From NCBI GenBank assembly GCA_000091205.1, contig AP006493.2: DNA of 64,000 nucleotides; one strand, written 5' to 3'. This DNA is from Cyanidioschyzon merolae (taxonomy: Eukaryota). The translations under genes were made by a program, and so were the position numbers. Shown piece after piece: positions 1,630-41,795 of the stretch (positions are counted from its first letter, which is position 1; each line of letters starts with the position of its first letter). The notes under the pieces are model-generated. The model made no database searches. It was given only the letters and a program-made list of their open reading frames with translations, and was not told where the DNA came from.

Positions 1630-1675
1630 TTCATGGAGCATGGCGCATCGCTTAAAGTCGGATGCCATTGGCAGA

Positions 1676-2869
1676 CTATCCCCCGGCAGGATTCGGGAAC
1701 GCCGCCCGCGGAGTGCCTTCATCTATGTCTGATTTCGGCGTGTACGCTTCTGTTGAGGCAGCACCGGAGCTCGTTCGCACGGCGTCGGCTGCAAAAGGGT
1801 GCATGCTCATGATGAGAAGGTCCAGCTCCGCCAAACCGTGTATCCTTTGAGCGTGGAATAGCAGATTAGCCTTTTGTGCGAAAGGACGGCCGCAATCCAA
1901 AACCGGGCAACGGAAGCGTATTTCCCTCAGATGCACGGCTCTGTAGTGCGTGTTTGCGTTTCCTTTCTGAGAGAATCTTCTACCACAGCCCGGATACGGG
2001 CAGCCGAATGGCTTTTCTCGCTCGTGAACTGTTCTTATGTGAACCTGCAAATTCCCACTCAGGGTAAAACGCCGCCCGCAGCCCGAAAAAGGACACACGT
2101 GCTTTCCAAACTGGCCCCGCTGCGCACCGGGTGGCAAATTCGAGCACCTTCGTTTGCGGCGAGGCTGCAGGGAAGTCCCCGAGTGATAACGCTGATCCAA
2201 TGTTATTAGACGTGCGGCTTCTGAATCGATCCTGCCGAGCCACGTTCCGGTCGGAGCTGACCGTGGCGTTGCCGGAAAGCGACTCAGTGGCGAGCTTTCG
2301 GAGATGCTTGACATTACATTTCCACTGGATTCATCGCACTCGAGAGCAAACAGCTCCGCTCCCGAGACGGCCAGCGCATCGGTCGTTCGACTTGTCGATG
2401 GCGCACTGTGGGGAATGCTATCTTGTGAAGGCGAGTCTAATGTCGATGCGCCAGGTGCGGTGCACACCGAACTGATGTCCTCTGACGCGCATCGACTTAG
2501 AGGTCGACTCGTTTCAAAGGAGGGCGACCACAAGTTCGCGACCGGAAAGGCTGGAGCCGAAAGCGGCGCGCACGGGATCCCCGTCTCGTGTAGCAGAGCT
2601 TGGGTCCCGCTGGTCACGGAGACCGACAGCTCTCTCCAGGGAGGCCTCCTAGTGCTCTTTCCGACATTCGCTTGCCTAACTGTACCTTTCGGGGGTACAT
2701 TCTGTTCATGATCCTCAAGGAGATCAGCTATGTGCACGCGTAGATCGTGTTCTGAGAAAGCCGCGCGAAAGGGTTCCGCTCCAATGCCGCTCGCACTCGG
2801 CTGTTCAGAAGACGTTCCTCGAGCGTCGCTGGGCGTCACCGCTTCCATCCCCTGAGCTGTGTCACTCAC
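1676..2869 (-). CDS. C2H2 zinc-finger protein (three tandem fingers in C-terminal half)
   Basis: Classical C-x2-4-C...H-x3-5-H spacing three times in a row: 'HVCPFSGCGRRFTLSGNLQVHIRTVH', 'FGCPYPGCGRRFSQKGNANTHYRAVH', 'FRCPVLDCGRPFAQKANLLFHAQRIH'. The true start may be an internal Met. Confidence 0.5.
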   Translation of the reverse strand: MSDTAQGMEAVTPSDARGTSSEQPSASGIGAEPFRAAFSEHDLRVHIADLLEDHEQNVPPKGTVRQANVGKSTRRPPWRELSVSVTSGTQALLHETGIPCAPLSAPAFPVANLWSPSFETSRPLSRCASEDISSVCTAPGASTLDSPSQDSIPHSAPSTSRTTDALAVSGAELFALECDESSGNVMSSISESSPLSRFPATPRSAPTGTWLGRIDSEAARLITLDQRYHSGTSLQPRRKRRCSNLPPGAQRGQFGKHVCPFSGCGRRFTLSGNLQVHIRTVHEREKPFGCPYPGCGRRFSQKGNANTHYRAVHLREIRFRCPVLDCGRPFAQKANLLFHAQRIHGLAELDLLIMSMHPFAADAVRTSSGAASTEAYTPKSDIDEGTPRAAFPNPAGG

Positions 2870-4417
2870 TGAACAGGTGGCCCACGAAACGTGGAAGCGT
2901 TAAAAAGCAAAGATATCAACTAAACCAATGATAAACACAGAAAAGTCAAAGAAGACGCTTACAGCCCCTTCAAGCGGGACTGCCTCCGCGATTCAGAGCA
3001 CAGCAAGTCTCAAACCTGCTACGTCCTTCGAACCTTCCTTCTCGGGGCACCTCGTGCTTCTACCAACCCTCAACGGTCTTTTAAGACGCACGAAGCGCAC
3101 CAGGAGCTCGAATCTCTAACGAACAGAGCCCGAAAATGGATCTTTATCGTGTGTCTCTTTCAGGCGCCGCCTGCATCTGTGCGGGTTGTCATGTCGACCA
3201 GGCCGATTTCATGGCGGATGGCAGGGGCGCGGCTGCGAATCGAACGGAGGGCTGTGCGAAGCGCAGGCCCCGACCTATTTCTACGGCTGCGCATATGGAC
3301 ACGTGTCAGGGAAAACGATCTCCGCGCGTGCACTCCAATTCTGGCAGGCTGGTGCGTCACGGTCACATTGCTGCTCCACGCTCATGTCGATCGCGCTGCG
3401 TTCGCTGCTGCTTGACGTGACGCGGTATCGGTCGTGAGGGACAGATGGAGACGCAGAAGTAGGCACTGTGCACGAGATGCTCCACAGGTGCGGGACACGT
3501 TTAGATGTAACTCGAGACCCTAATTGGGAAATATATCAAACAAGAGATTGTGTGTCCCAAGTGCAAAGGCGCCCAAGACTCTCACGTTCGAGTGCGAGAT
3601 TTTCTCGTCGCTGAGAAACACTAGGTTTGCACCCAGAGGAGACGAGTAAAACTGTGTGCTTTGAGACGTGTAGCTTGGTTCCTGTGGAAGCCTTGTCTAT
3701 AAGACTTTGACATACGCATGCGACCGCGCCATTTTTCCCGGTCGTTGACTGACGAAGCTCGACAGTTCGACTTCCTTACCTGTAGAAAATTAACGACTCA
3801 CTCTGCACCTGCGCACTGCTGTACGTCATGGTTGCGCAGGCTGTACCGCGCATGAATACCAATTAAGCAAATAGGTAAGCTCGCTTCAACTATTACTGTA
3901 GTTGGAGGATGGCAACGGTTTCGATGAAAAGCAGAGCACAGGCCTGTGGGCTATGCCCTCGGGAGCTGTAGGACTTCGATCTGCAGCCGTGGAAAAGTAA
4001 AGCGGGGCACTGTGCTGCATGCTTTTGTTCATGTCTACTGATATTCTTTCCGAATTGTTTTCAGAGTTACTGCGTCGACATTCAAAGTGCAGCCGCAAGA
4101 GCACACGGCTCTGTACGGAGGTTTGCGATGATCCGGCGTCGTTTCGAGTCGCTCATTCAACTCGCTGTCGTTGGAACTCGTTCCGCCACCGGAATCACGA
4201 TGCTTTGCGACGCTCTCGAACGAAGATTCGTAAAATAACCGATCTGGTTATCCTGTTTGTACGCACAAGCCGTATCTTCACAGTTCCTTAATTGGAGCAT
4301 GCTCATATTACACGTTCTTCAAATTTTCAATCTTTCTAGTTAAAGGCAACTCGTGGGCGCAGCAATGCGATCCTCTGAATATACGAGGAAAACTACCAAT
4401 CGTCTTTGACGACTTTT

Positions 4418-5003
4418 TTACAAACTCACGCCAAAATTGCACTGAACAGCACATGAGAGATAATCGATGCCGCTCGAAACGCAAGGCGTTCTCTCTTTGT
4501 GGATATCAAAGAAACGGGATTCTACAGCTGCATGATGTCCCGAAAGGGATGTGCTCCTAGAGGTTCCGGTCTCTTTTGTTTCCATACAAAATCGTTCTCG
4601 ACCCGGACTTGAGTCATCGCAGCGATCGCTTCCAGTGGAGAGGGCGTCATCGCTTTGCAACATGATAGTATAGACCGATCGAAATTTCTCGGTTTGCTCT
4701 CCAGCCCGAGGGCTCTTTCCGATGCTTGTTCGATCGTGGACGAAATCGCACCCCATAAATACCATTTTGAATGGAACAGCACGCGCTTGCGCGTGCCACA
4801 GACAGCGTACATGTCGAAGAAATTGCCCAGTGGGACCCCGTGGTCTTGAGAAACGGTACGGGGCGTTGAAACGGAGAATGGCACCAGTGATAGCGTCCTG
4901 TGCCCGTCAAGGGTATGTACTGAGTAACGCAGTAGGCGTTCACGCGGCACAAGTCAGCTCTGGTAGGCGGAGGTATGATTGACATGTAGTAACACACGAC
5001 CAC
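4418..5003 (+). pseudogene. degenerate fragment of a TnpB/Fanzor-like element (middle 'F.EWNS' block only)
   Basis: The + frame 4655..4849 gives 'KYHFEWNSTRLRVPQTAY', matching 'FIEWNSMHFRMLRTEY' of the 17.25-18.15 kb copy and 'AAWNSG...FRKFMEVRIAHWDALWEEY' of the 39.5-41.6 kb copy. The opposite-strand translations 'CCKAMTPSPLEAIAAMTQV' and 'LQSDDALSTGSDRC' match 'ACKAMTNSPTEANAAITQ' and 'LQSDDELSNGSERC' at 17651..18142. No intact RuvC-III follows. Confidence 0.3.
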
Positions 5004-5980
5004 AACCAGGTGTCACAGCCGCGAAGGACACACCTACGCTGTACATAAAGACGATGAACCTGGCAAGGGAAGTGTAGATCCTAGCCTCCCTCTGTGCATG
5101 AAATGCGGAGATAACAGCCGGCAGCAGCGAAATCAGGACTCTAACGCCGCCGTCAACATACCGTGACTGCTGACAACGGAACTGGACGGACAGGAGAGAC
5201 CGACTAATTTCAGGCCGGTGCTTTCAGAGAGCGAAAAAAATTTGTCAAAGAACAAGCCCACAAATGCTGGTGTTCTTAACTGTGGAAAAAGATCCAAACT
5301 TTAGCTTGTACGCTCGTGTTAGAGTAAATGTTCCATTTTATTCTGACGTAGGTGTCGATGATCGACGAGCATCCGCTGAAAGTTCCACGATAGTGCAGAG
5401 CCTCGATCCGGTTGTAGTCCAGGGCGAAAGCATGTGGGGGCTCGGAATCCAATCAAAGACTTTGTGTCGTTACCACTGATGCGTGTTCCCATGGTGCACT
5501 GTAGGTGCGTCTTATCGGACTCCCAGGGATAGCTACCAGCTGTCGATAAGCAGCGGTAATACCATCGTGTACCCACGCACGCTCTAGAGAATCCCGTGCG
5601 CCTCTGATCCACATGCCAACAAAATTGCGAGAAAAAAGTGAACAATTTTCTACTGGTGCCAATAGCACTCAGAGATACGCGTCCAGCCATTCACCAGGAT
5701 AAGGTGCACAACGCGTTGCAGGGCGCTGTCGCGTTCCAGTTCCACGCTTGGAGCAGCCTCGAAGCACTGCGCCGCATTTGATGGCGCTTCGCGCGCCGAC
5801 TGGACGGTGCCGTTCCAACGCGCAGACGTTAGGGAGGGTCGCTCTCCGCCTCGACAAGCCGTACCCAGTAAACCTCTCGGGAGAGTTCCTTGTGCGAGAC
5901 AAAAGCTTACCTTACTCGAGATCCTTCGATTCGTACGCGGTAACCCGAGACGCTTCATAAGTGAAGTCTTGCTTTTCTCC

Positions 5981-7360
5981 ATGAACGGGTCAGGACCTGG
6001 GGTGCTCTCGGCAGCAGCGCAGGGAGCACAAGGCATCCGTTCGAGCACTGTTCACGTCATCGCGGCAACTGTTGGCATTGCTCGACTTCGTGAGGATGTG
6101 GCTGCCTACCTCGCAACAGACGCTGAGTATCGGCTACGTGAAATTATCCAAGAAGCAGGCAAGTTTATGCGGCACTCCAAGCGCAGGCGTTTAAAAACGT
6201 CAGACATAGCAGCGGCGCTGCGACTGCGAAACCTAGAGCCTCTCTATGGATTCAGCTCCAACGAGTCTGCACCTTTCGTTGGTGTGACACTGCCAGGAGA
6301 AAGTTCCCTGGGTGGAAGCAACACAGTCTACTTTGTAGGTGACGAGGAAGTAGACTTGCGAGATATCCTTGACGGTGAACTGCCGCGTGTACCTCTCGAG
6401 ACCACACTAGCGCTTCACTGGCTCGCAATTGAGGGCATACAGCCTAGAATTCCACAAAACCCTGCAGATGTTTCGAGTACGGCGCGACAGTCTTTGACCT
6501 ATATCCTTCGAGACACCGTGCACGATGAGCCAGGTCGAAACGCGTCGGATACCCCAGACACCGACACTGGGATGGTATCTTTTCGACCCAAAGTAAGGCA
6601 CGTTGTGTCGCGTGAACTGCAGCTGTATTACGAACTGGCTATTGAAGCATTGACTAGGAGCGCGCAGGAAACAGATGAAACGCTGCGGAATGCTTGCCTT
6701 GCCTCCATCGCGAGGGATCCTGGCTTGCAACAACTCGTGCCCTATTTTGTTGCCTTCCTATTCCACCATGTCTCGAACCATTGTCGCGATTTGCCACAGC
6801 TGCAGGTTTCCATGAAGCTGGCTCGGGCGCTCCTTGAGAATCGCTATGTGGGACTGGAACCATATTTGCATCAGCTGATGCCCTCCATCATTACTTGTAT
6901 TGTGGGTCGTTATCTGTGTCGCACTGCGGACGAGGATCATTGGACCTTACGGGAGAATGCTGCCTCGCTTCTCGCAGATGTTCACAAAATGTACGGTGGT
7001 ACCTACGAGAATCTGTTGCCTCGTATTGCAGAGACGCTGCGTCTTGCGTTAGTGGGTGAAGACAAAGCTCTTACTACACAGTACGGTGCTATTGTAGCAT
7101 TTCAGGAACTAGGTCCAGCTCTGGTAGAGGCACACATTGTGCCGCTTGCACCTAACTTGCTCGAAAGATGGGAGCGCAAGATCGAGCACGAGCTCGGTGA
7201 AGCGCCAATAAAATCAGCTGAGCTAGAGCTGGCAACGTCACCCAAGTGGTCAGAATTACGTCGTGTATATGCTGCTCTGGCAAAAGCGTTAGGCGTCGGA
7301 GCAGAAACCCTTGAGGCGAAGTATGGCAGCAAATATGCGCACTTCGTCATCCCTTCGTGA
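5981..7360 (+). CDS. TAF6: TFIID subunit TAF6 (histone-fold N-terminus plus HEAT/ARM-like C-terminal domain)
   Basis: The 517-aa ORF starts at 5807; an ATG at 5981 is the likely start. The N-terminal histone-fold region 'VHVIAATVGIARLREDVAAYLATDAEYRLREIIQEAGKFMRHSKRRRLKTSDIAAALRLRNLEPLYGF' matches the TAF6 pattern, and the C-terminal region 'LHQLMPSIITCIVGRYLC...HWTLRENAASLLADV' matches the TAF6 conserved domain. Single exon. Confidence 0.65.
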   Translation: MNGSGPGVLSAAAQGAQGIRSSTVHVIAATVGIARLREDVAAYLATDAEYRLREIIQEAGKFMRHSKRRRLKTSDIAAALRLRNLEPLYGFSSNESAPFVGVTLPGESSLGGSNTVYFVGDEEVDLRDILDGELPRVPLETTLALHWLAIEGIQPRIPQNPADVSSTARQSLTYILRDTVHDEPGRNASDTPDTDTGMVSFRPKVRHVVSRELQLYYELAIEALTRSAQETDETLRNACLASIARDPGLQQLVPYFVAFLFHHVSNHCRDLPQLQVSMKLARALLENRYVGLEPYLHQLMPSIITCIVGRYLCRTADEDHWTLRENAASLLADVHKMYGGTYENLLPRIAETLRLALVGEDKALTTQYGAIVAFQELGPALVEAHIVPLAPNLLERWERKIEHELGEAPIKSAELELATSPKWSELRRVYAALAKALGVGAETLEAKYGSKYAHFVIPS

Positions 7361-8325
7361 GCACGCTCAGCGCTGGCATGAGTAGCCAGATACGCAACAT
7401 CGCCAATGCGGAACGCTCGCTCCGCAGCCGCTTGCCGACGCTAGTGCTCGCTGGGGCGTGCTGCGAACCATGCAGAACACGTCCAGAGCAGTTGATTAGA
7501 TTCGAAGAGCTCACACTCAGAGCCATCGGCGCGCGTCGACCCGAATGGATGGATACTTGCTCTCGAAGCGCACAGAGCATACGAACGACGGGAAAAAATG
7601 TCTCGCACACGCTAGAACGCGGAAACGAAAACATCCACATTGCTGCGAGGTGAAGTCATGATCGAGATGCCACACAGAGGTTTCGGGTTGATAGATCCTA
7701 GGCGACTGCCGACACTGAAGAGCACCAGATCATCGATGGAAGAATCGACATGGACCGATGTTGTTTTGTGAAAGAATCCTCGTGAACGCCATCTTGTCAG
7801 GTGAATCAGTTGATCATCGATGTTTACCAATCATGTACAGCTCGCAGCGCCACTGCCGTCATTTGCATCATTGCAGTGCCGCTTGTGCGGTCGAATTGCA
7901 CAGCTTCAAAGTGCTTCGTTGACGCTCACGGTACCGCAGCATCTACGCAGCTTGCAGCCTGCGTTCATCCACGAATCTTGTTTCCTTGTCATATTTTGAA
8001 TGGCGTCTCGCAAGGCATAAGGCTGACGCGAACGACATGCCCCAGCACTGCTTACATTGTCGAGCCGAGGGGTCTCCCTGCCACCCTAGTCAGCGGGCAA
8101 TTCATGGCCCTGGGCTGCCGTGCGGCGCCCGTGGAAATCTCTCAAAGCATGACGCTGTTGACGTTTGTGCCTAAGATGCTTGTTCTAGTGTCCGTCCACG
8201 GGGGCAGATTAATCCAACTGCCTGCAACCGGCAGCGTGCGGGCATCGCCTGCAGGCCTTCCACGCCGGGCACTCTGCGCCTGCAACCGCACGCAGAGTAA
8301 TCTTCAGGGCAGTACAAGCAGCTGC

Positions 8326-11078: not shown

Positions 11079-14000
11079 AACATACCGACAGATATCGTTG
11101 GGCTTCAGCAAGCCCGCGGATTGGCGGCTCGATGGCACCGAACGCAGCCTCGTAAGAAATGTGCCAGGCTGATTGGCCACCAGGGCACTGATCGTGTTCT
11201 TGATTCCTGATCGTTGTCGAGGATAGATTATAGAGGAACTCCAGATGCTTTTTATGTTCATACAGCGGTCTTGAGTGCCCTTTCAGTCTAGTCCGTGCAA
11301 GCGGATACTTGAGCTTTCGAAGCACCGCCACAAGCGCTAACTGACACACGCGCTACCCGCGGCACATGCCTTACCTCTCGCGGAACTTGATACGATTACT
11401 CCAATGGACTGCTTTGGCAGTGTTCACGAGAACTTTGGATTGGCTTTGAATTGGGTTAGAGCACGGCAGCGTGGAGAGCGCACGCGGAATCCCCGAAACT
11501 CACGGATGTCAATGTCCTGGCTAGTCGTTTATATGTACGTCGCATTCGCCCCGAGATACGGATTCGCGCGCCACTGATGCTTGCTGGTCACGTCGTTCTT
11601 TCGACGGATATTAACCTTGTTCCAATGAAATGCGCCTGCGCGAATCGGCGAGATCCAGGTTGCCACCAACGATTACGGAACGCAATGTGCTGATATCCCA
11701 GCTCTGGAATGCCAGGCATGGTTCGGCTTGTATGTAGAATCTACGGGAGATTAAGAAAGTTTTGGTAAAGCCCACGAAAGTGCTGCTGGAATCAAGCTCG
11801 CTGTCGCTCCTCCTTCCGAAAGTCATTCGCACTGGGTCCCGTTCTACGCAGCCTCACTGCAGTAGCTTCAGGTACCTCCTCACCCTAGGATCATTTGCGA
11901 ACCTTCTGTATTTATCTAGTACACGCTCTGCGGGTGAGTCACCTGAATCCAGATGCATTTCTGCATGGGAGTCGCCGTAGTCTGGCGACGCAACGAAGCG
12001 ACATCAGAATCCGACAGTGCATCTTGAGGCCACACATGCTCCAGTTGTCTGCGCACTGCGGTTCGTTCAATCGCTCAATGCCTTCCAGGTGTTGATAATA
12101 AACCGTCCGGATGACGCAGAGGAGACCGCACACATATCACTGAACAAAAGACCCCAATGTCTGAGTCTTCGCGTTGTGCTGAGTTGACGTGAGTGGCATA
12201 CGTTTTCGTGGGGTGAGTCGTCCTTTCTCTTTGCGCATTGCGCGCGTTTCGCAAAAACAGGACTAGTTCGCCTCTGTGTACACGGATTCCTTCACTTAAA
12301 CCCTTTCCAATCCATACATATTGTGAGAAATACTGGTGAGGAAGCGATACATCGAAGAGGTTCCGAACAGCTGATAATGACGGCGATAGACCCGGATGAA
12401 CAAAGAAACAAGCACGTTTCTTCGAGAGATCGTCACTCGTTCAACAGAACACGTCCAATCTCGTACTGATATCCAAAACTTGTTGCGACACAGACTTGTG
12501 TTTTTGTCTCTTGATCAAATTTCGTTCCCATCAAACTGTATCCCTGTATATTGGCACTCGAACACAAAAACACTACTGTTCCTAAAGAAGAGACAAGGGA
12601 CCAAAACGACTGCAATTGCCCTGCAGGCCATTCAGTAGTGCGTTCGCCTACGATTTGCAATACGAACTAAATGTAAATATACATCGTGCTTCGTAGAAGC
12701 ACTTCGTGGCTTCTGATTTCCACATTCTTCTGACCTGCACGTAGACCGTGCCACTTTCCGTCACTCTCAAGCGGGCAAGGAGCGCGCTGCAGCGATTGGC
12801 GTTGAGCGGCTCTTGGTGCCAGGCTACTACCCCTGGTTCCGTCGACTCAAATGCGTCTTCTCGCGAGTGAAAGGAAACATCGAAGCGCATGGATCCATCG
12901 AAGGGTCGTTTGAATCCACGACACCCAAAGATGCACGACGCCATGAAGAATCGCGTAGCGTCTTTCTCATGGAAGGCGCATATGGCTTATCTCTCCCCAG
13001 CGTGCATCAGTATGCAACAGTTCGTTGGAGAGTTCCGGACGCTGGGATGCTATCTGTCTCAATTCGTCTGGAATTTTTCGACGAAGCATTTTTGCTAAAA
13101 TATGACGGGTGCTCGGGACGGAAGATACAATACGGGCCGAGCAGAGGATCAGATATTCGCTTCAAACGCTCACCAGGGGGTTGCGACGCGTCGCCGTGCC
13201 GTGTTGGCGATCGGGGTATCGAAAGCGCAGGCCCCGGAAACTCTCATACCAACATTTTTGACCAAAAGCATACGTGGGTCAATGCCGAGTGCTTCATGGA
13301 ACGTACCCATGGGCGTCCTTTGCGTATCCTGCTGAGCGTGATCAGGGAGAACTGATGACTGGGATTTCCGGCTGTCTCGATGGACGCAAATGACAAGCTG
13401 GTGGCGGCAGTGATCGATGCGGTAGCACGTGCGGAAGCGACATCGCAAAGACAGCAAGAGTCTCCCGAGGTATTCCATGCGTATTGTCTGGAGCTCGGCC
13501 TCGGACCGACGGACGTCGTATCCAGGGGATTGTTGGGAGGCCATGCTGCGTTCTTTACGCCTTGCGCCATTTTGTGTGCCTTGACGGAGACCGGCATAGC
13601 ATAGCAGACTCGTTGCTCGAACGCAAGCGCCCAAGCCTTGTCACGCGTCTATCGATATATAGTTCCCATGTATCAAACCGAGGCCCGTTGGATCATAGGA
13701 GGCATGTGTATGGTGTAGGTACTCCCCACTGAGGCTCGATTGGTCTTTGCGAGCGAGCACAAAGCTTTCGTGCAACATCGCGGAGACCATTAGCTGAGCT
13801 CATGCACAGTTTCTCGCTTCCGCGGACGAAATGGAAAGAACTTGACGAGGGCCATGGAGACCGACGGAATACGAGTCTGCGCGTACTTCGTGAGATTCGG
13901 TAAATCTAGTCCAGATGCGAGCAACGAGACTCGTCCTCAACTGCGCAATGTCGACGAAGAGAAGGACTTTATGTAGAGCGTGGATCCCATGCTCAGGGGG

Positions 14001-15394
14001 GTCGTGGCTCTCGCCATGACTGTTAAGCAAGCGGAGGATGCCGAATACCTGAAAGAAAAGGTAACGAAGCTGTTTTCGTTCCCCAGGGATCGATACGGTC
14101 TTGCGTCAACCCTGACAGACACCTGGATGCATACCAATACATGAAACGACGGAATCAAGAGCAATCTCGACGTTCCGGGCATCGTATCGAGCTGAAGCAG
14201 ACCCTCCGTGCGCTTCTTTCAGAGAGTACGCCATACCAAAAACGGCTCGCACGCATGTTCTTTTAGTAGAAGTACGTGAGACTCTGTTGGGGTTACTTAA
14301 CGTCTTGGTTGTACGAAGGCAAGAAGTGTATATTCGCAAACTTGCTCAAAGAGCTGGAAGAGGAAATGATCGGTTCATTGCGTTATCTGTTGGTCGCCTT
14401 TGGCGCTAGAGGTGCTGTAGCGTGCACGGGTCGGGTTCCTGCTTTTATAGAGAAGGTCGTCGAACGAGTGCAGGAATCGATTCTGTGCCATTCTCGTGGA
14501 TGCCTCTAGGACGATGTACGCGGATCACGAGCGGAAACTTGCGATGGAAATTGGTACAGGAGCAAGTGCGAAACAGAGACGGATGGACGAGACGGCGTGC
14601 GTGACGCTCTCCGTACGCCAGATGGCGATGCAATCCAATGGAGGCGGCTTGCTGTGACGTGACTCCACTAGCACTGACGCGCATGTGCACGCCTTGCATC
14701 GAGGCCTGACCGCAGTCATCGAATTCCCGGCAATAATTCGTGCCTCAGGAGCGTCCATCAGCTTTTTCTCTAGCAAACTTTCGAGATAATCGTTTAGCAC
14801 TTCGTGCGGGCAGTGAAATGAAACATTACAGGTTTTTGATGGAAAACCAGTGACCCTGAGAGAGCGATCTGATTCTTGCCTGGAGCAAAGCACTGGTATG
14901 GTACTGGTCAGCAATCTGGCAAGGCTGGAACGCAGTATACATACACAGAGAACTGTTTTTCTGTGCAAATGTCGATCGTTAACAGTTTCCCGTTATTCAA
15001 TATCACTAGGTATATTCGATAAAAAAGGGATCACCGTTCAAAAAAGCGAGGATTTCCCGCAAACATTCCTCGGCTGCAAATTGCATGGGCAGCACATGAA
15101 CTGCATCCGATACATGCAGACCGGCCATCTGAGCGATGTACACGTTGTCTATGCGGGCGTATCGAAGATCGAGCGCACGCATCAACCATTTGAGCAAGTT
15201 TACCACCAGGACGCCGTGATCTCGTTCATGCAAACAAGACGGACCAGACGCACGCCGACCGGCCTCCTCCGCGATCCCCTCGTTCATGCGTCTGCACGTC
15301 GCGGCTGAGAAGATCTCATAGACTACGACCGAGCAAAACCCCGTGTCACCTGAGATCAACAGTCGCGCGTCTGGACGTCCCGGTTGATGCGACC

Positions 15395-16741
15395 TCACCG
15401 GGTACGATCGAAAGAGTCCAAGAGGGTGCCGCGACGTGGGTCCAGCGCGTTGAGCGCGGCCTCGTGACAAACGTCACCGGTGCCTGCGCTCCGCGGCGGC
15501 GTGAAGGATGCCTCCGATTGATGCTTGCCGCCACCAAACTCCGATGCGGTACCGTTCGGCACCTCCGATCCTACATGCTTGCCATCAGATACAATTTCGT
15601 ACGTGAAGAGGGAACCCCACTCCATCCGACACGCATCGATCACCTCGCGTTGATCGCGGATGCGCACGCGACGTCCAGCGCGAGCAATGCGTGCGGCGAC
15701 GGCGAGTTTCTGGCTCTCCTCGATAATCGGGACAGCGCATGGATGCTTGTAGGTGACGCCTTCAAACGTATATTCTGGAAGGTTCTTCGCTAACAACGCC
15801 TCAGCCATATAGGTAGCATGCTTTTCATTGTAGGTATCTGTTGCACGACTCATCATGGGATCAATACCAACAGAAGCAGCGTAGCCGCCAAATGCTCGAT
15901 TATCGCGCGGGAAACAGGGTCCACCGAAGCCGTAGCCAGGCAGCAGGCACTTGGACCCGACACGTGAGTCCGCGCCGACGCTCGCCAAGATTGCGTATTT
16001 GTCTGCATTTGGTGTGCGATCCGCGACGTCGCCAATAAAATTCGCAAAGCTGATTTTCATGGTGATGAAACAGTTCAGAGCGAGCTTCGCAATTTCCGCG
16101 GATTCCGGTGACATCCTGTGCACGGTGATCTGGTCTGGGTTCCGCACAAAGGATCGCCAAAGACGCTCGAGCAGGTCTCCGCCATACGTACTGCTTTCAC
16201 CAATGAGAACCGTATCGGGCAGCTCGAGACCTTCGATGATGTTGCCTTGTTGAATAAACTCAGGATTGTATTGTAGTTGGACGTTTTCGCAGTCCCCTAA
16301 CAGTGCACGCCCAATATTTGCTATGTATCCCGGCATCACCGTGCAACATATGGTGATGATTTTATTGCGCGGCCGGCGAGTATTGATGTGCATCAAAACA
16401 CGCGAGAGCTGCGTGACGTCGTAGTGCCGGTCGCCGCCGGTGCTGGGCGTCGCAACCAGTACCAACAGATGATCGCTGAACTCTATCGCTTCATCCAACT
16501 CAGTCGTGGCTCGAAAGTTTCTAGCTGCCTTTAAGTACTCCATAACTTTGGGCTCGTTCGACTTGAGCGAACGCTCGTTGAGTGCCTCCACATACTGCGG
16601 CAAGACGTCGACCCCCAAGACGTGATAGCCGGCCCGTTCCGCGACAAGTGCCAAACAAAGACCAAGACGCCCGACTCCTATTAACGAAATATTCTTCTCT
16701 CGTGTGCTCGGACCGGACATATCTGCAGCAAACGGGTGCAC
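15395..16741 (-). CDS. nucleotide-sugar dehydrogenase, most likely UDP-glucose 6-dehydrogenase
   Basis: N-terminal Rossmann motif 'ISLIGVGRLGLCLALVAERAGYHVLGVDV' and catalytic Cys context 'GYGFGGPCFPRD' typical of the UDP-glucose/GDP-mannose dehydrogenase family. 448 aa, single exon. Confidence 0.7.
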   Translation of the reverse strand: MHPFAADMSGPSTREKNISLIGVGRLGLCLALVAERAGYHVLGVDVLPQYVEALNERSLKSNEPKVMEYLKAARNFRATTELDEAIEFSDHLLVLVATPSTGGDRHYDVTQLSRVLMHINTRRPRNKIITICCTVMPGYIANIGRALLGDCENVQLQYNPEFIQQGNIIEGLELPDTVLIGESSTYGGDLLERLWRSFVRNPDQITVHRMSPESAEIAKLALNCFITMKISFANFIGDVADRTPNADKYAILASVGADSRVGSKCLLPGYGFGGPCFPRDNRAFGGYAASVGIDPMMSRATDTYNEKHATYMAEALLAKNLPEYTFEGVTYKHPCAVPIIEESQKLAVAARIARAGRRVRIRDQREVIDACRMEWGSLFTYEIVSDGKHVGSEVPNGTASEFGGGKHQSEASFTPPRSAGTGDVCHEAALNALDPRRGTLLDSFDRTR

Positions 16742-17250
16742 CGCAAAACGTGCACGTTAAAATGATTAGTAGCGATTGCGACGTACAACCGTGGCCCATA
16801 CGAACTGTGAAAGCGCGCGCATCGATGCCTGCTACGCGCCGCGTTTGTTCACCGCATGGCCCTGGAGGCAAAGGTGTCATGCGGGCTGGATTGGATACCC
16901 GATGGCGAATTCGGCACCCGAACGTTCATAGGAACGATGCACTACCTCCAAAGGCAAGTCGGGGAGATGGATAATGAGACTCGCGGAATTTCCGCCATTC
17001 GTGGCGCCCTCATTAGATGCCAGACACAGTCGCACACGTTGAGGTCTCTGGATAGCCTCGACGATCCGACACGATGGAAAAAACGAGTCGCACATGGGGC
17101 GCTGGCGGCACCCTGGTGCCCTGGGCGGGAAACAGAGTGAAAGGGAGTCATGCTGGAGCGGCCCAGGTGAGAGGTATCAATGTGTCGTCCGCCATACCAC
17201 GGTATTTGTCGTGATTTTGACTTATTTACGCACAAGCACGTCACCATAAA

Positions 17251-18142
17251 TTAGAACAGGCCCACTAAACCAGGCGTGCGTGCTAACGTTTTTGTTCCTT
17301 TTGCGGGGTTATCAACAACGTGCTTTGTGGGAACGTTTTGCGACCGCTTCCTGTTCCCCCTCTCAAGGCCGGCTTTGTCTGCGGAAGCCGGTTTCTCCTT
17401 TCCCCCCAGTACCGTTGCTAGCAGTCTAATGATGTTGATTGGAGCGTTAAAGTCCCGATTTCGAGGGTTCCAGATCTTGCCTACGCGTCTGATGCACATG
17501 CGGAAGTTGCGATCTACACTTCGCTTGCCTTTTGCATCTGCTTTGAGCATGGACTCGGCGCGCACTGTGCAGCGCTGACGCTTGGCTGTGGTCCGGTGTT
17601 TTCATATATGCAATACACCATGTCCCTAGCCTCCTTCCTCAAGGGTCGCCTTGCAGCGCGTAAACCATTGCTTCATCCCTCGGTACATACCCTTGACTGG
17701 CACAGAAGGTTCGTGTGGATGCCTTGCACCGTTTCGTACCAGGCTCTGTTTCGTGTGTGATCACGCGCTTTCTCTGGGCGATATCTTCGGCGAGTACTCT
17801 GTCCGCAGCATGCGGAAGTGCATGCTGTTCCACTCGATAAAGGGCTTGAGGAAACCGATCTTGTCCATGACGAAACAAGGACCCGGAAAGAAAGTCCAGG
17901 CTCCAGAAAAAGTAGAGAAGATTCGATCCACCTTTACGCTCTTTGCTTGCAAAGCGATGACGAACTCTCCAACGGAAGCGAACGCTGCGATTACACAAGG
18001 CGGAGTCCAAGACCTTTCTGCACACAAACGGATGACACAGAAGCCACTGGAAGCATACCTGCGAGGCGCATCATGCTGCTGTCGGGTGCTGCTTTGTCGA
18101 TGCCTTGAAACAGGGAACGATTTGTCTTCCAAATGGCGTTGA
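17251..18142 (-). pseudogene. degenerate TnpB/Fanzor-like gene copy (F.EWNS block, RuvC-II-like and RuvC-III-like blocks in three different frames)
   Basis: Minus-strand ORFs, 5' to 3': 17761..18132 'FIEWNSMHFRMLRTEY'; 17639..18025 'ADRVLAEDIAQRKRVITHETEPG' (RuvC-II-like); 17251..17565 'CIRRVGKIWNPRNRDFNAPINIIRL' (RuvC-III RD.NA..NI). The frame changes between blocks indicate decay. Confidence 0.45.
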
Positions 18143-19059
18143 TTGTTTGACTTGCCAAATTAAGTGTGGTTGCGGCATGGGTTTGTGAACATCTCGTCAA
18201 GAGACGACGTCAATTTTATTTGCCCCGCCAATCCAGGGGCTCGAATTGCTGCGCCCGCGAGTTACAGTGAATTACAAACATGGGTAACTTGAAGAATGCG
18301 TTATTTGAGCGCGCGAGACGCGAGGAAAGGAGTAACGCGAAGGCTTGTACGTGTGAATCGGATACTGGTATTGGTCACCGTATGAAATCTTGTTCGAGGA
18401 CGTCGAAAATCGCCTCGATGCGGATGACGTACAGAATTCCATCGGGCGCGCGTCGAACGAACCGTTCCGAGCGGACGACCAAGCATCCGAACCCGACACG
18501 TGCATCCCTATGCACTCATTGCTTCAGTTGGCATGTAGAGGCTCCAAATTTATAAAAAAAAATTCCGAAAGATCGACTGCTAGGAACTGAGCGAGTAGCT
18601 GAGCGTTCCATTTGCGTCTCTCAGAAGACTGAAAGCATTGACAGCGCTCTGGATCCGTGGATAACCGTCATCGCCTGCGAGATGAAAGCAATGCATTCCT
18701 CCTTGCTGTGAGGTCGGACGCTCACAACGTCACTGGAGCGCCCCCTGAGCGGCCATGCGTGAGTTGCACGCATTTTTTCAGCTTTATTTGTGTCAGCGGA
18801 GTCGGCAGATACGCCCTCTGCAGGGACCTACACGGTTCGCCTTGTTTCCAGAGAAGAACTTTTACGATCTATACTGACTTGTAACGTTCGATAGCGCACA
18901 GAAAAGAGACTGGAATCATCGCGCAGCAGCTCCAGCGCAAACCTACGCTGTACCCGATGACGACCCAGGCAGATAGGCAAAGCACGTCACACACAAACGC
19001 AGCGGCAATCTAGAGCATGCCATCGCTGGCGCGCGTGTGGAGATTCTTCACGATCACTG

Positions 19060-19261: not shown

Positions 19262-20641
19262 GTGTGGCGGCCTAAACCGCGATGTACAGAAGAAAGCCTC
19301 AACCAGCTGTTTGGCTCGTTCGGCGTTTGTCGGATCAACCTCTTTCCGACGTACGCGTTCATCGACTATGAAAGCCCGCAAGACGCGGAGGAGGCTTTTA
19401 ACCAAATAAATAGCGGTGGACCGCTTTCAAATTTAAACGGTTTACAGCTTCGTGTAGAATGGAGCAGACGCTCTCGCAAGGGATATGCCTCGACGGAGCA
19501 ACGCGCTGGTGAGGCGTCATCTGGCGCTGGCGCATCGGGTGGCTGCTTCGAGTGCGGATCTATGGACCATCGCGTGCGAGACTGCCCTGTACGTCAGGAG
19601 AAAGAGCGTTTGGGTGGTGGCGGTGCAGGCCGCGGAGCCGCTCGGTACGGCTCCGAAGGCAGGCGTCCACTAGAGGGCGGGCCCGGTCGGGCCGGCAGCG
19701 GTGGCGCTCGCGTTTGCTACAACTGTGGCGGCGTTGGACATACGTCGCGTGAGTGCCCCTCTGAGAGGGGTGTTCGCGGCAACATGGGAGATCGCGGGCC
19801 TGGCAGCTCTGGCCCGCGCGGGTATCCAAGTACTGGGCGCGGCGCGGAGACGCGCTCCTGCTTCAAGTGCGGTGAGAGCGGCCACCTTGCGCGCTTTTGC
19901 CCAACAACATCTGCTGCGGGGCCCGATGGAAACGCGTATGGCAGCAGAGGACGCCGTGAGAACTCGAGGCCTGATCGTCGCGATTGGGGCTCTGGTCATT
20001 ATCAAGAGCCGTACAGCCGTGACAGGGATTCTGACAGAGCGCAAAACGTGTCCGAGGGTGGCGCAGGCTTTGGAAACCGCAGAGGGCGCGAAGACGATCG
20101 TTACGACTTTGGCAATGAGCTAAATGAAGAGCAACAGACGTACGAGAATCGCAGGGAGCGACCGTTCCATTCCGAGGGCGTTGAAGAAGACGAGCACTAC
20201 AGTGAGCATTCGCATGACGAAGGCTACGGAGATTACGATGACGACAACGCGGGCTCGTCTGTAGGGCAAAAACGACGTCTCGCGGGCGATGCATATGACT
20301 CGGGACACCACGACGGAGGTTCTGATGCTTCGCATGGCGATGGTAACAGTGATGATGACGGCGATGATGGTTATCAGCGAGATAGTCCAGGCAGCTCTTA
20401 CGGTGCAGACGAAGACCATGACGGGCGCGCTCAAGTGAACGGCTCGTACAAGCGCTCTCGGCATGGAAACGAAGGGCGAGGCTCGGAGCGTCGTGAGGCG
20501 CCTTCTGACTATGCGCACAGCGACTGGAATTCGTTGACGCTGAAGGATCTCAAGGCAGAGGCCGAGAAACGGGGTATTGATACAACCGGAATGCGACTTA
20601 AAAAGGATTACGTAGAGGCGCTCGAAAACGCGGCAGCGTGA
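19262..20641 (+). CDS. RNA-binding protein with partial RRM, four CCHC zinc knuckles, acidic/RS-like low-complexity region and C-terminal SAP motif
   Basis: RNP1-like 'TYAFIDYE'. Knuckles 'CFECGSMDHRVRDC', 'CYNCGGVGHTSREC', 'CFKCGESGHLARFC'. C-terminal 'NSLTLKDLKAEAEKRGIDTTGMRLKKDYVEALE' fits SAP (LxxLKVxELRxELxxRGL). The RRM's N-terminal half (RNP2) is not in this ORF, so an upstream exon or alternative start is possible. Confidence 0.5.
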   Translation: MWRPKPRCTEESLNQLFGSFGVCRINLFPTYAFIDYESPQDAEEAFNQINSGGPLSNLNGLQLRVEWSRRSRKGYASTEQRAGEASSGAGASGGCFECGSMDHRVRDCPVRQEKERLGGGGAGRGAARYGSEGRRPLEGGPGRAGSGGARVCYNCGGVGHTSRECPSERGVRGNMGDRGPGSSGPRGYPSTGRGAETRSCFKCGESGHLARFCPTTSAAGPDGNAYGSRGRRENSRPDRRDWGSGHYQEPYSRDRDSDRAQNVSEGGAGFGNRRGREDDRYDFGNELNEEQQTYENRRERPFHSEGVEEDEHYSEHSHDEGYGDYDDDNAGSSVGQKRRLAGDAYDSGHHDGGSDASHGDGNSDDDGDDGYQRDSPGSSYGADEDHDGRAQVNGSYKRSRHGNEGRGSERREAPSDYAHSDWNSLTLKDLKAEAEKRGIDTTGMRLKKDYVEALENAAA

Positions 20642-27323: not shown

Positions 27324-28348
27324 TTATTTCATAAACAGCATATGCATGACAGTGGAGCGCAAAAATATCCGCGAACATGTAAGGTACTTATTTACCCGCG
27401 CACAGACGCCTCCCAGCCTCTTTTGACAGGCCAATTGCTGTCGTTTCAGCTCCTTTTTGTACAATTTGAGTCTGAGAAGCTGGTCGAAAAGGCTGGACCG
27501 CATCAGATCCGCGAGTCTCGGCATCAGCATCGCACATCGTCTGATATCGATGGCGGCGTTCAAGTCTCGGTTCAGAGACTCCATGATTTTATTGACGCTG
27601 GTTGAACTCACCAATGCAATGATTGCTGCGGCCTGTGCACTTTGCGAGACTGCAGTCACGTTATCGGCTCGTCGGGCAGATTCCTTTCCCAGACGATAGC
27701 CACTGTTCGATTGCATCCTCTTCGTCACTCGCGATTTATCGCTGGATGGTCGGCGACGAGAGAATTTTTTGTCGAAATCCGAGATACCGGGCCTCCAGGA
27801 CCCTCAACTTCGATGCCCATAGGCGTCCACTGGATTTTTTATTTCTTCAAAATGAACGCATTTGTTGATTCCCTCAGGTGCGGAGCTTCGCGGAGCAAGA
27901 AGGACCCTCTGAAGAGAGATGCAATGTGCCCTGGTCTGTCAAAGAGTGCTCAAAGCTTCAGCGATTCGCTCAGTTGAACGATCAGTATGTTTTACGATAG
28001 AAAACACTCTTTCGATACGGTTGAATCACGGTGGGCATGTAGGAATGAAAAGCAGCTCTATCCCTAGAGAATGAGCAAACGCACGAGCGCAATCGGACTG
28101 GTCGAGTGCCACATAGTCCAGTTGAAGGATGTCTCCAGATTTCACGTGAAAAGTTCTCAATGATTCGTCAAAGTGGTTTGTGCTGCTGTACGAGCGCTCT
28201 CTACGAGCGAAACTGAGTCCGTTACTTGAATCCAGTGCAGCTCGAACAGAGGACGATGTCGTCGTCCTTTTCGAGTTCGCTCATACACACAACGGGCGCC
28301 CAGCTCCGCGAGTGCCCATATGCGCTCCGACCGTTTCATCCGGAGCAT
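27324..28348 (-). pseudogene. degenerate TnpB/Fanzor-like copy (RuvC-II-like block at about 28.2 kb, RuvC-III block at about 27.5 kb)
   Basis: 28157..28348(-) 'ERIWALAELGARCVYERTRKG' aligns with 'ADRLLAEAINRTKTLVVEFGNG' and 'ADRVLAEDIAQRKRVITHETE' of other copies. 27324..27728(-) 'SVNKIMESLNRDLNAAIDIRRCAML' closely matches the RuvC-III 'HRDLHAAINIRKCAVL' of the 39.5-41.6 kb copy. Confidence 0.4.
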
Positions 28349-29049
28349 GTATCATCGAGTAGGACGAATGCGCTGTCGTCCTGCAAGAAGGATGTGCACT
28401 TCAGTGCGAAATCGACAGTGTGTTGTTCAGTGCGGGATTTTCTCTGTTAGAAGCGTGCTTTTTGTTTGTTCCTCCGTTTCTCTTCATTAACGGTCGTATC
28501 AACGGTACGCAATCTTCAGATCCTGTCGCATATTTGGTAATATTTTGTAGACAAGGCGTGGAGTGGAATGGATTGACAAGAAGAAAAATTTTTCGGCTGC
28601 GTCGAGTACATTCGGATTTGGTTGCGCGGCGTTCACGATTCGGCGTACGAGAAGCGTAAATCACTTGCCAGCTGACCGTCGCATATCCGTTTTGGACAAG
28701 TAAGACGATTTCCGCAAGGCAGCTGTGGTATCATAAAGTTTTTCTGTGACCTTTATCGAAGCTCTCGTCTACGTTGGGTTTGTTGAACGCCTGCTAGAGA
28801 AACGAAGGAAAATCGAGAATGGCTCGGTGATACATGTAGTCCAGAAATCACTTTTCTGTGTATTACTGCCCAGCATTGGCCATGCGTTGCCAAGGCGCTC
28901 CGTCGAAATCCTTTCGTATCAGCATGGAATTGAACGGGTTTACCTGGCGAACCCGGGCGAATACTCTAAAATGATGGTGACTTCCCAGAGTCACGAACGA
29001 CAGTCCTCACGCGCCTTTTCTACGATTGCTTCCTGTTCCTCTCGCTTAT

Positions 29050-29577
29050 TTACCGCTTGAAATACACCAGAATCTCTTTCCCCTCAGGTCCCGTGGTCAG
29101 CGGTAGAAGGATCTTGATAAGAGTATAAAAGTCCCGATTTCGCAGTTTCCGGCCTTTGACGACGCATGTCGTGCACTGGCAGAAGTCGCGGTCTAAGCCT
29201 CGCTCCAATTTCAATTTCTTTCCGGACAGCATTGGCGAGCCCTTCACAGCGATGGCACCTGAATCTAGTCAGGTATTCTCGTGTGCCGACCATGCATCTT
29301 CCGTCTGGCGCCGCCCTGAGACAAGTGAACGCTTGCTTCATCGCACCGTTCATGCGGTTTCGGGGTAAAGGGGGTTCCCCTCGATGCCGTATTCTCCGTG
29401 TCCGCTTCCGTTGCCAAACTCTACAACGAGGGTCTTGGTCCGGTTGATCGCTTCGGCGAGTAGCCTGTCCGCAGCACACACAAGCGCACGGCGTTCAATT
29501 TGATGGGGAATATGTGGAATTCGATAATTTTTCACGATGAAACATGTACCGGAAGGAGTGCCCAGGCTGGAGATCAA
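29050..29577 (-). pseudogene. degenerate TnpB/Fanzor-like copy (RuvC-II-like, CxxC, RuvC-III-like blocks; frameshifted, stop inside)
   Basis: 29350..29577(-) 'ADRLLAEAINRTKTLVVEFGNGSGHG'. 29084..29479(-) 'TREYLTRFRCHRCEG' (zinc-finger remnant). 29050..29247(-) 'CQCTTCVVKGRKLRNRDFYTLIKIL' (degenerate RD.NA..NI). Confidence 0.35.
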
Positions 29578-30754
29578 GTCGAGAGATTCGGATCCGTCGA
29601 CGCTGCTTCCGTGCTAGACTGTTACGCATTCTCGATGGGAACCAGTAGCCGAGGTGGCTCAAGTCCGACTCCAAGACCGTTTTTTATGGATGCAGAAGAG
29701 ACTGGAGTTTTTGGGAGCAGAACCCGGAAGACGTATCTTGCTGGTGTCGAATTCTGTTTCTTTGGCGCCCACAAAAATAAAAGGATCTGCGTTTCAAACG
29801 GGATCGATTATTTTGCGTGAGCTGTTCAGTGCAGTTTCGGCATGAGCTTCTAAACAATTCGTCGAAAGATAACGTCGTGTGGTTTGTCTCGCCAATGCAC
29901 CTGCGCGAATAGCGGTGCCTACGAGTTGCTTTGGAGCAGAAAGATCGAAAAATCGTCGAATGCGTTTTTCGAGCATGCTGTGCCTGAGGCATCGAGAAAA
30001 TTGCAGGCGCATACCTATGCATTGGATTCTGAAATCTGTTATTTTAAGAACCATTGTTCGATGGCGTCGTTAGTCAACTTGCTTCCGATGACCTATCGCT
30101 TTCCAGCTTCAACGAGAGGAACGAACCACTCCGAAGTGGCCACCCAGACTCCCGTGACCAGCTATGAATACGTAAGCCCTTATTGATTCACGTCAAATGT
30201 CAAGGCTGTATATCAAAAACAACTTCGGAAAACTACCAAGGCAGAAATAGTTCGAGCTCTGGTATGATCCATGTTCTTGGGACGCAGGTGTAGGTCACGG
30301 CACACCCGGTGCCGCGCAGGCGCCATGGATCCGAAAGCGATGCGGCTGCGTGCGTGCACGCGCGACTCGACAGGCGTTTCCCGCTTTGTAGATGCGCGAG
30401 GCGGCCGCGCATCGGATTTTCAACTGCCAGCCGCGGCGTCGAGCGATCAACGTTCGTATGAGCGCCTGCGTTTTCTTGCGACTGCATTTCCCAGCGTTCG
30501 GGTTCGGGGTATCCGCGCTGCACGATAGGCAGTTCGGTTTTATAGGAGGCGTTGAATGGAGCCGCAGCCTCGATCCTGAACCTGAGTTGCGGTAACGCCG
30601 GAATATTGGTTTGACGGTCCCGCTGTGCAACTGCTTTCCAGAGAACGTGGCTCTAAACGTGTACCCACAGGTTGCGGCTTGCGCGCCAGGCGTTTCCGGT
30701 GACAAGTCAGGCGGGTTCTTGAGTTGATAGCCTTCGGTTTTGGCAGCGGTAGCA

Positions 30755-38150: not shown

Positions 38151-39495
38151 TAAAGATTTGTATGCACGGCTTTTCGGATCTACAGCGCTGTGAGTAGGTG
38201 ACTGGGTTTGGTGGCAGCTTTCTTGAGTTCCCGCTGGGGGTGCCCTTTCGGGGGATGACTTGTGATGGGCTCGTTTGGGAGTTCTTCTTTCTATTCTTCT
38301 GTTATTTTTTCTTCTTCTTCTTCGGGCTCTTTCCTGAGCTACTTTCTCTGGTTACTCTTCTGGCATGTGGATCATGATGCCATTGTGTCTTTTCTTCTGT
38401 ATCCCGTTGGGCCTTTTTCGCTAATATAGATTCCTCGACTTGTATCAGTTTTTCATTACTGTACTGGTAATTCGATATCTCGTCGTCTAGTATCGAGGCT
38501 ATCCCACAAATATTCCATGATGCGAAACCTATCGAGTCGTAGCGCGTAAGGGAATAAGAATAGCGCTGCGGTACTCCAGAGATACGTTGTCGATTTAGAT
38601 GCACCCTCCACGGGGTGTGTGAACGCACATGCCACCAGCGCCTCCTGCATTCCAGTCGTTCACTGAGTGTCTGCTGCAGCGCTAGCGTAGAATCAGATGT
38701 ACATTAGTCAAGGTCGATTCAAATGCGACCTTTATCTTGCCGGACGTGTGAAGCTACCCGCAACCACAGGGGATACTCTATGAACCACCCTTTCAGCGGC
38801 TTCGTATCCGCTCCCCAAATACACAGGCGGGCAAGTCGCTTACTCCACTTTCGACAGCGAACATGCTGCCAGCCGTCTTCAAAAGTAGCCGCCGAAATTG
38901 TTTCCAAAGTTGAGGTAGCTACCCAAGGTAGGAGGTAAAACTGAGCCCGAGTTCGAGGATGGATCCAGGATTTGCGCCCGAACCTGCAGCGTTGTTTCGG
39001 GAGTGGCGGATGACTACCCAGAACTCTCGTCATCATTCTCTGCTGCTATTGCCGCCGCCATCCGTTCGATGCGGTCAAGGTCCCTGGAGAGGGCTTCCTT
39101 CCTCGTCGCCCGAGCACCCCGCGTTAACCCACTTTCAGAGTTTCTCCGCAAAAACCGGACTTCTTAGGCGCGCATACTGTATGGGGCTTTTAAGATAGTT
39201 GTTCTTTAATAAATAATTTGTTACTAGTTTGCATCACGCTCGGTGAGCGCACCTCGGAGATCCGGCAGGCATGAGACGCTACGCGTATGTCGCCGTTGAA
39301 GGGGAACGCGATCCTGATCTCTAGTATGTAGATCTAATGTAAAAGTTGTATTTTCGTTAACTTCATAGCCAAGTACAGTTTTTCAGTTCGTTTTTGTTTC
39401 AAACTTCATACAAGTCTAGTCAAGTGTTTTTTTGCAGTATATAACAGAAGCGTTCACAGAGCGTTGTTTTCCAAAAAAACTAAAAAAGGAAAGTT

Positions 39496-41570: not shown

Positions 41571-41781
41571 ACACGAGAGAGTTTTGTGGGACACCCTCTC
41601 AAAGTGGAACTATATGAGAAGAAGTTGAAACCAGTAGTAGGTGGCCGGTCCAAAACGACGGGGAGGCCTCTGCACGTCAATTGGAGACTTCTTGTCCAGG
41701 GCGCGGTTGCTGCCACTACTGGACACCGCTGGCGTCGTTCGACTTTCGATCGGTGCGCAATCGCGGCAGCGTCTCGACAGT

Positions 41782-41795
41782 CGCGATGCATCGCG
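41782..41795. repeat. 14-bp perfect palindrome (cgcgatgcatcgcg) within GC-rich structured tail downstream of the Fanzor ORF
   Basis: Self-complementary when read directly. Embedded in 'cgcaatcgcggcagcgtctcgacagtcgcgatgcatcgcgtgctttcgattcgagg'. Confidence 0.8.

Follow-up and report, generated by a model that had tools for sequence, protein, structure and literature searches.

A decayed copy of a 1.4-kb non-autonomous DNA transposon with transposase- and Fanzor1-like remnants on chromosome 11 of Cyanidioschyzon merolae

Several peptides readable at positions 17251-18142 of a 64,000-nt window (the whole stretch of Cyanidioschyzon merolae DNA analysed here) resemble parts of the nuclease TnpB, which raises the question of what kind of element left them there. 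In the original prediction they were taken as the remains of a TnpB-like gene that had retained all three conserved blocks but was split across three reading frames, with a further module 5' of the nuclease, possibly on the opposite strand. The window belongs to C. merolae 10D, three of its proteins being identical to BAM80483, BAM80485 and BAM80487, and a CMK locus tag places it on chromosome 11. It is gene-dense and eukaryotic in content, with TAF6, aminoacyl-tRNA synthetases and an RRM/CCHC/SAP protein among its genes. The flagged stretch itself is found in a 2.5-kb intergenic spacer between two divergently oriented genes, encoding a UDP-glucose dehydrogenase (15395-16741, minus strand) and an RRM protein (19262-20641, plus strand). 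It is one decayed copy (c17) of a 1.4-kb non-autonomous DNA transposon and, as such, an ordinary genomic fossil.

The extent of the element was determined from nhmmer and MAFFT family alignments. Their end coordinates assign c17 to 17233-18631 on the minus strand, 1,399 bp bounded by two terminal inverted repeats (TIRs), considerably more than the stretch first flagged. The expectation that the locus would align at the nucleotide level both with 4300-5100 and with 39400-41900 was borne out for the former only: 17386-18310 matched the reverse complement of 4301-5205 (65.6% over 932 nt, E=2e-50), whereas nothing was found against 39400-41900. Another alignment of c17 was obtained with 29076-30134, on the same strand. 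A family HMM run on the window detected three full-length units and one 5' fragment. Besides c17, these are a copy on the plus strand at 3984-5354 (c4, 79% identical to the family consensus), a copy on the minus strand at 28911-30290 (c29, 74%) and, at 46579-47247 on the minus strand, a 5' fragment of a fourth copy (c47) that retains the left TIR, covers the initial ~490 nt of the family model and breaks off within the transposase part described below. The repeat is thus genuine, with defined ends and a length of about 1.4 kb. A multi-copy family common to the 4.4-5.0 kb locus, as originally proposed, was confirmed, and the 1.4-kb unit was located also at 28.9-30.3 kb and, as the fragment, at 46.6-47.2 kb. 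All four copies lie in intergenic spacers within 43 kb, with about 13, 12 and 17 kb from one to the next; such clustering is probably due to chance in a transposon-rich stretch.

A scan of metagenomes returned 26 loci matching the family, which correspond to the same three loci and to six further genomic copies. Where such a locus could be aligned with the window from one end to the other, the identity was 99.0-99.5%, and the contigs concerned are therefore from strains of C. merolae. The presence of three copies about 12 kb apart had also been considered as a set of orthologous loci in another species; this was ruled out, the contigs being assigned to C. merolae strains (99.3% identity).

No single copy offered an informative ORF. 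Searches of the raw c17 ORFs and of the ORFs of CMe-1A, a published Fanzor family of C. merolae, against Pfam gave no useful match, and a consensus was consequently built from eight copies (1,354 nt; each copy 73-79% identical to it, c17 76%). Only this multi-copy consensus yielded the family matches reported here. Two modules can be distinguished in it, both on one strand and enclosed by TIRs of ~25 bp: a 5' part derived from a DDE_3 transposase and a 3' part similar to Fanzor1. A first consensus of three copies had suggested one long TnpB-like frame, which was superseded by the two-module reading. Neither the consensus nor a profile built from intact relatives retrieved a solved relative in sequence searches of the PDB. 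Protein database searches with the consensus retrieved short proteins only, namely further decayed copies and some C-terminal pieces of Fanzor, with no full-length intact relative among them.

The 5' module occupies 17845-18500 (minus strand) in c17 and is the remnant of a DDE_3 transposase of the IS630/Tc1-mariner type, interrupted by several frameshifts and stops. Frame 0 of the consensus matched Pfam DDE_3 (PF13358; gathering cut-off 28.6 bits) with 35.8 bits up to the second Asp and 43.2 bits when extended (E=9e-9 to 5e-11). The same frame matched the NCBIfam IS630 transposase with E=3e-15, colinear with positions 20-236 of the 299 in the profile; the score of 56.5 is below the model's full-length cut-off of 100, as expected for a truncated, reconstructed sequence. 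An HTH_33 match in the N-terminal part of the frame is weak (E=0.03). The first and second catalytic Asp are represented in the consensus by FVDIDETAF and CFIVDKIAFHK. In c17 the corresponding landmarks, all on the minus strand, are the HTH-like N-terminal region around 18439-18489, the first Asp motif GIDKAAPDSS (18075-18104), the stretch VIAAFASVGEFVIALQ (17947-17994) and the second Asp motif CFVMDKIGF (17851-17877). The catalytic triad is incomplete: no profile match extends past the second Asp, and the third D/E is missing. Over the ~80 nt that follow the second Asp, frame 0 does resemble the transposase motif 'YSP..P.E' (+7.4 bits), but frame 2 of this DNA matches Fanzor far more strongly, and judged by this comparison the resemblance appears to be a coincidence. 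The peptide YSPKISPRE had been a candidate for the third catalytic motif and was overruled, the other frame of the same DNA being identical to the Fanzor of two metagenomic relatives (L030 and L032) at 17/25 residues. A premature stop within the transposase module (WTRT*VIAAIAS) is present in 6/8 copies and a second stop in 4/8.

The 3' module (17286-17839, minus strand) represents the last ~180 residues of a Fanzor1-like protein, with the RuvC-II Glu, a zinc ribbon and RuvC-III. In frame 2 the consensus reads ..YRMEQHALARAAD..KPVIVGYGTG..SVPVKGMY..DIWEHLTTSKCHRCEG..CMKC..RNRDFNAAINILRL, and this frame scored 36 bits against Pfam Cas12f1-like_TNB (PF07282; gathering score 26.3). The last 60 positions of the NCBIfam guided_TnpB profile were matched as well (E=3.6e-5). 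On the minus strand of c17, YRVEQHAL..AADRVLAEDIAQRK (17768-17839) lies in one frame and the other Fanzor motifs in another: VPVKGMY (17683-17703), the RuvC-II site with the first half of the zinc ribbon (17569-17601), the second half of the ribbon, MCIRR (17485-17499), and RuvC-III, RNRDFNAPINIIRL (17422-17463). The last of these, with its RD.NA..NI motif, falls within the TNB and guided_TnpB matches of the consensus. At the RuvC-II site c17 reads *KHRTTAKRQRC, where the consensus has WEHLTTSKCHRC; compared with WEHLTT in the consensus, the Glu has become Lys with a stop just before it, and the first Cys of the zinc ribbon has become Arg. Copy c29 still carries the RuvC-II Glu and the first CxxC as REYLTRFRCHRCEG. 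The C4 zinc ribbon of the consensus exceeds the Pfam threshold, whereas the ORFs of c17 alone, which keep 2/4 Cys, gave no match. The presence here of a decayed TnpB-family (Fanzor) relic in which RuvC-III can still be recognised was thus correctly noted from the outset.

Assignment to Fanzor1 is suggested by the eukaryotic host, the association with a mariner-type element and significant pairwise matches to the Fanzor1 proteins PUl-1 and CMe-1. The Fanzor part is colinear with residues 539-732 of the 734 of the published Fanzor1 protein CMe-1 (E=6e-7) and 27% identical to the C-terminus of PUl-1 (E=3e-8). A closer relative is L030, a eukaryotic metagenome contig (JGI 3300028372), with which the Fanzor part shares 47% identity over 204 aligned positions (E=3e-58). 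This contig harbors at 6013-7549 a near-full-length, solo Fanzor in two reading frames, beside genes for Skp1 and a peptidase M16. In L032 (ENA ERZ27301260), a 1,114-bp contig from an AT-rich relative, the Fanzor is differently deleted, its N-terminal ~20 residues being joined to the last 216. Directly upstream of this Fanzor, which is of the same lineage as that of C. merolae, and on the same strand, L032 encodes the C-terminus of a DDE_3 transposase (VLFVPPYSPWFNPIE; PPYSPWFNPIE; 33 bits in Pfam).

Could the flagged stretch nevertheless be what it was first taken for, a stand-alone TnpB or Fanzor gene with three RuvC blocks, frameshifted into three frames and accompanied by an opposite-strand ORF or module? 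The three minus-strand ORFs on which this reading was built (17761-18132, 17639-18025 and 17251-17565) do exist, as do the quoted peptides: FIEWNS at 17824-17841, RNRDFNAPINIIRL at 17422-17463 and, on the plus strand, IPLTGT at 17687-17704, CKAMT..TQ at 17948-17998 and LQSDD..RC at 17947-17988. The RuvC-III motif among them is genuine, and the short opposite-strand peptides can be read in both c17 and c4. However, the blocks do not each occupy a frame of their own: the ORFs 17761-18132 and 17251-17565 share one frame (18132-17565 = 567 = 3x189), and only 17639-18025 differs, which makes two frames and not three. The supposed block F.EWNS is an off-frame reading of Fanzor DNA, FIEWNS being encoded by the same nucleotides as YRVEQHAL (17816-17839) in ORF 17639-18025. 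The latter is the true Fanzor frame, in which the family consensus and L030 are identical at 17/25 residues of this stretch. The upstream two thirds of ORF 17761-18132 are instead a genuine transposase frame (VIAAFASVGEFVIALQ and CFVMDKIGF). RuvC-II had been placed in ORF 17639-18025, but its true site (17569-17601) is located upstream of the ORF that contains RuvC-III and in the frame of that ORF. Finally, RuvC-I (G.D.G..N) and everything upstream of it is absent from every copy, so that not all three blocks were retained. With the 338-aa L030 Fanzor as tblastn query, matches start at residue 119 or later, namely at residues 119-135 in the full-length copies and further downstream in L016 and in the L025 fragment; in L030 itself, GLDPG of the RuvC-I motif GLDPGRVN is found near residue 27, and the match to the C. 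merolae copies sets in only about 105 residues after that motif.

The opposite-strand module fared no better. CKAMT.. and LQSDD.. are the same ~50 nt read in two plus-strand frames and are antisense to VIAAFASVGEFVIALQ (17947-17994), and IPLTGT is antisense to the Fanzor motif VPVKGMY (17683-17703). The opposite-strand peptides are therefore exact antisense images of conserved sense motifs, and opposite-strand translations of the consensus match no Pfam family, whereas the sense frame matches DDE_3. Coding constraint had been suggested as a check for this module: dN/dS across copies is 0.72-0.95 in all six frames, none of which stands out on either strand. What stood of the proposal is that the element extends 5' of the nuclease and carries a second coding module there; the module lies on the same strand and is a truncated IS630/mariner DDE_3 transposase. 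Taken together, these observations make a stand-alone nuclease gene with an opposite-strand partner extremely unlikely.

The anatomy of the preferred reading, a mariner-type transposon in which a transposase remnant is joined to a Fanzor remnant, was examined further at the junction and at the ends. In c17 the junction lies at approximately 17835-17850 (minus strand) and is common to every copy that spans it. The transposase match ends at the second Asp and the Fanzor match begins within ~15 nt, the tblastn match of c17 starting at 17839; the junction is not placeable to the nucleotide. Both TIRs of c17 are degraded. The left (5') TIR is located at 18605-18631 on the minus strand (CAGTCTTCTGAGAGACGCAAATGGAAC; family consensus CACCTGTGTCAGATTAAAATGGAAC), and the right (3') TIR at 17233-17257 on the minus strand, its plus strand being CAAGCACGTCACCATAAATTAGAAC. 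When 15 termini were aligned, the 5'-end consensus CACCTGTGTCAGATTAAAATGGAAC and the reverse-complemented 3'-end consensus CACCCATGTCAGAATAAAATGGAAC agreed at 22/25 positions, and the right TIR of c4 (5330-5354) has a single mismatch to the TIR consensus. The right TIR directly follows the Fanzor 3' end. A TA precedes both end consensuses and directly flanks only 4-5/15 individual termini, one example being the left TIR of c29; insertion may have duplicated a TA target.

No intact ORF remains in c17, where no ORF exceeds 163 aa. Relative to the consensus it has accumulated ~10 indels within the modules and seven in-frame stops. Codon-phase periodicity was not found across the family, in keeping with the dN/dS values above. 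Comparison of C. merolae strains gave 20 SNPs per kb within the element, compared with 11-14 per kb in the intergenic DNA on either side and 2-4 per kb in the neighbouring genes. Thus, c17 is a neutral relic of a family that has decayed to ~75% identity with the consensus, and it has no present function, encoding neither an active nuclease nor an active transposase.

The guide (omega) RNA of TnpB and Fanzor is encoded at the 3' end of the nuclease gene. This end is retained in the family, and c17 sits in intergenic DNA between divergently oriented genes, both of which would suit an exapted element whose copies are kept as host regulatory DNA in divergent promoters or as non-coding RNA (for example a retained omega RNA). 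A conserved function of this kind is hardly compatible with a strain SNP density that is no lower in the element than in the adjoining intergenic DNA, or with the ~35% divergence between copies, which have indels along their whole length. Moreover, the 3' region of the consensus, the expected place of the guide RNA, folds no more stably than shuffled sequences (z=-0.5), and a scan of Rfam gave no match. We consider the probability of exaptation next to nil. The retained 3' end also invites the speculation that the derivative spread because the omega RNA was kept beside the right TIR, allowing homing by Fanzor supplied in trans from a now-lost autonomous element. This would amount to a eukaryotic case of a MITE-like element parasitising an RNA-guided nuclease system; we regard it as very unlikely.

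How did a transposase without its C-terminus come to be fused to a Fanzor without its N-terminus? The original prediction saw a decay route in which an intact gene had been broken into three frames at this locus. The stop common to 6/8 copies and the same junction in every spanning copy contradict this, and they suggest that the progenitor of the copies was probably already non-coding when it spread and was mobilised in trans. Very probably, c17 is a dead copy of a ~1.4-kb non-autonomous transposon of the Tc1/mariner-IS630 type that arose from a composite 'mariner + Fanzor1' progenitor by one internal deletion and spread in trans. Between its TIRs, the progenitor would have carried two genes on one strand, the upstream one for a DDE_3 transposase and the downstream one for Fanzor1, the eukaryotic TnpB. 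A single internal deletion would have started just past the second catalytic Asp and taken out the remaining 3' part of the transposase gene as well as the 5' three quarters of the Fanzor gene, RuvC-I among them, leaving a TIR - transposase(deltaC) - Fanzor(deltaN) - TIR arrangement. This event would have occurred in the common ancestor of all copies examined. The non-coding derivative would then have been copied to at least ten loci, presumably by a TIR-recognising transposase acting in trans and inserting at TA, and the copies would have decayed neutrally to ~75% identity with the consensus.

A full-length autonomous parent was not found in C. merolae itself. The composite parent is consequently deduced from L032, with its transposase-Fanzor order, and from the published Fanzor1 genes borne by mariner/Tc1 elements. 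The missing parent would also suit a chimera formed without any composite ancestor, in which a Fanzor fragment was captured in a mariner-type element (by aberrant gap repair, template switching, or nested insertion and deletion) and subsequently amplified; other Fanzor1 families of C. merolae, namely CMe-1A and a family at 56 kb of the window, are possible donors. Yet the Fanzor part is unrelated to CMe-1A at the nucleotide level, and its closest relatives (L030 and L032) belong to a lineage that in L032 sits just downstream of a same-strand DDE_3 gene. Mariner-borne Fanzor1 genes are documented (PMC3627910; PMC10530073). Furthermore, the right TIR comes directly after the Fanzor 3' end, as expected if Fanzor had been the 3' gene of the parent. 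Capture is therefore an unlikely origin.

Further elements were identified in the window. A near-complete copy of CMe-1A at 39247-41734 (plus strand) is 87% identical to positions 660-3145 of the published consensus (supplement of Bao and Jurka 2013) and contains two in-frame stops and one frameshift. Older CMe-1A fragments are located at 27403-27863 and 50184-50530 (both minus strand) and at 35083-35304 and 43131-43181 (both plus strand). The fragment at 35.1 kb matches the 5' part of CMe-1A, a part shared with TE-N2_CMe (Bao and Jurka 2013, PMC3627910). A third Fanzor1-like family, with 25-29% protein identity to CMe-1, is present on the plus strand at 56066-57061, 62827-63462 and 13659-14443. 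The first of these is overlapped by an ATG ORF of 359 aa (56018-57097) that has no Pfam match and whose exact form is absent from the protein collection; a parallel frame of the 56-kb stretch contains GVDPE (RuvC-I-like) and PVDECTTT (RuvC-II-like). Each copy of this family is followed by 91-nt repeat units, arranged as tandem pairs at 56922-57103 and 63371-63552 and as a single, 62%-identical copy at 14563-14653, and these units may be the 3' terminal region of the third element. This family is included in a ~6.45-kb direct duplication (54851-57100 and 61302-63552, 98-100% identity), which brackets the genes at 58054-59367 and 60187-61176 (RRP36). At 49818-49974, a 20-nt tandem repeat (GCAACAGCTTCTGGTGCACT) of ~7 units lies where the ORFs 48182-49822 (seryl-tRNA synthetase) and 49826-50581 meet.

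If the composite origin is correct, the very compact genome of C. merolae was once host to a mariner-type transposon with a Fanzor1 gene, of a lineage distinct from the reported CMe-1A, and what remains of it is only an internally deleted, TIR-bounded derivative. For annotation, loci of the c17 family should be masked as DNA-transposon relics and not as TnpB/Fanzor pseudogenes with three RuvC blocks. There is also a methodological lesson: when a diverged repeat is read in several frames and on both strands, its short conserved peptides may pass for additional protein modules.

The family can be compared with four known types of element. Bacterial TnpB of IS200/IS605 and IS607 has in common with it the TNB zinc ribbon and RuvC-III, and the guided_TnpB profile is matched weakly; in contrast, the c17 family resides in a eukaryotic nuclear genome, is combined with a DDE transposase rather than TnpA, lacks hairpin ends and retains the C-terminal quarter of the protein only. 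CMe-1A, the single Fanzor family listed for C. merolae and stated to be without TIRs (Bao and Jurka 2013, PMC3627910), shares the host genome, the protein superfamily and the RuvC-III motif RDFNAAINI. The original prediction had grouped c17 with the 39.4-41.9 kb element, which belongs to CMe-1A. The two families are not related as copies: in blastn, their consensuses match over only a 29-nt patch at the RD motif (E=0.05), and their proteins are 23% identical. CMe-1A is ~3.2 kb long and was reported without TIRs and without a transposase module, whereas the c17 family measures 1.4 kb and has TIRs and a DDE_3 remnant. Given the 29-nt patch, the 23% protein identity and the reported lack of TIRs, the c17 family is assigned to a different, mariner-type lineage.

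The closest likeness in overall plan is to the documented Fanzor1 elements borne by mariner/Tc1 transposons, such as PUl-1 of Pythium ultimum (Bao and Jurka 2013, PMC3627910; Jiang et al. 2023, PMC10530073), which are TIR-bounded, target TA and carry a DDE transposase gene followed by a same-strand Fanzor1. Compared with these, the c17 family is a deletion derivative only. Its transposase is without the C-terminus and the third catalytic residue, its Fanzor is without the N-terminal three quarters including RuvC-I, and it has no intact ORF, all copies being ~25% diverged from the consensus. With IS630/Tc1-mariner (ITm) elements in general the family shares the order of HTH and DDE_3, TIRs of ~25 bp starting with CA and a likely TA target. 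The spread of internally deleted copies is common among mariner-like elements. Unlike other non-autonomous derivatives of this group, however, the c17 family has a nuclease-gene stub as its 3' half and the third catalytic residue deleted, and its length of 1.4 kb far exceeds that of a typical MITE.
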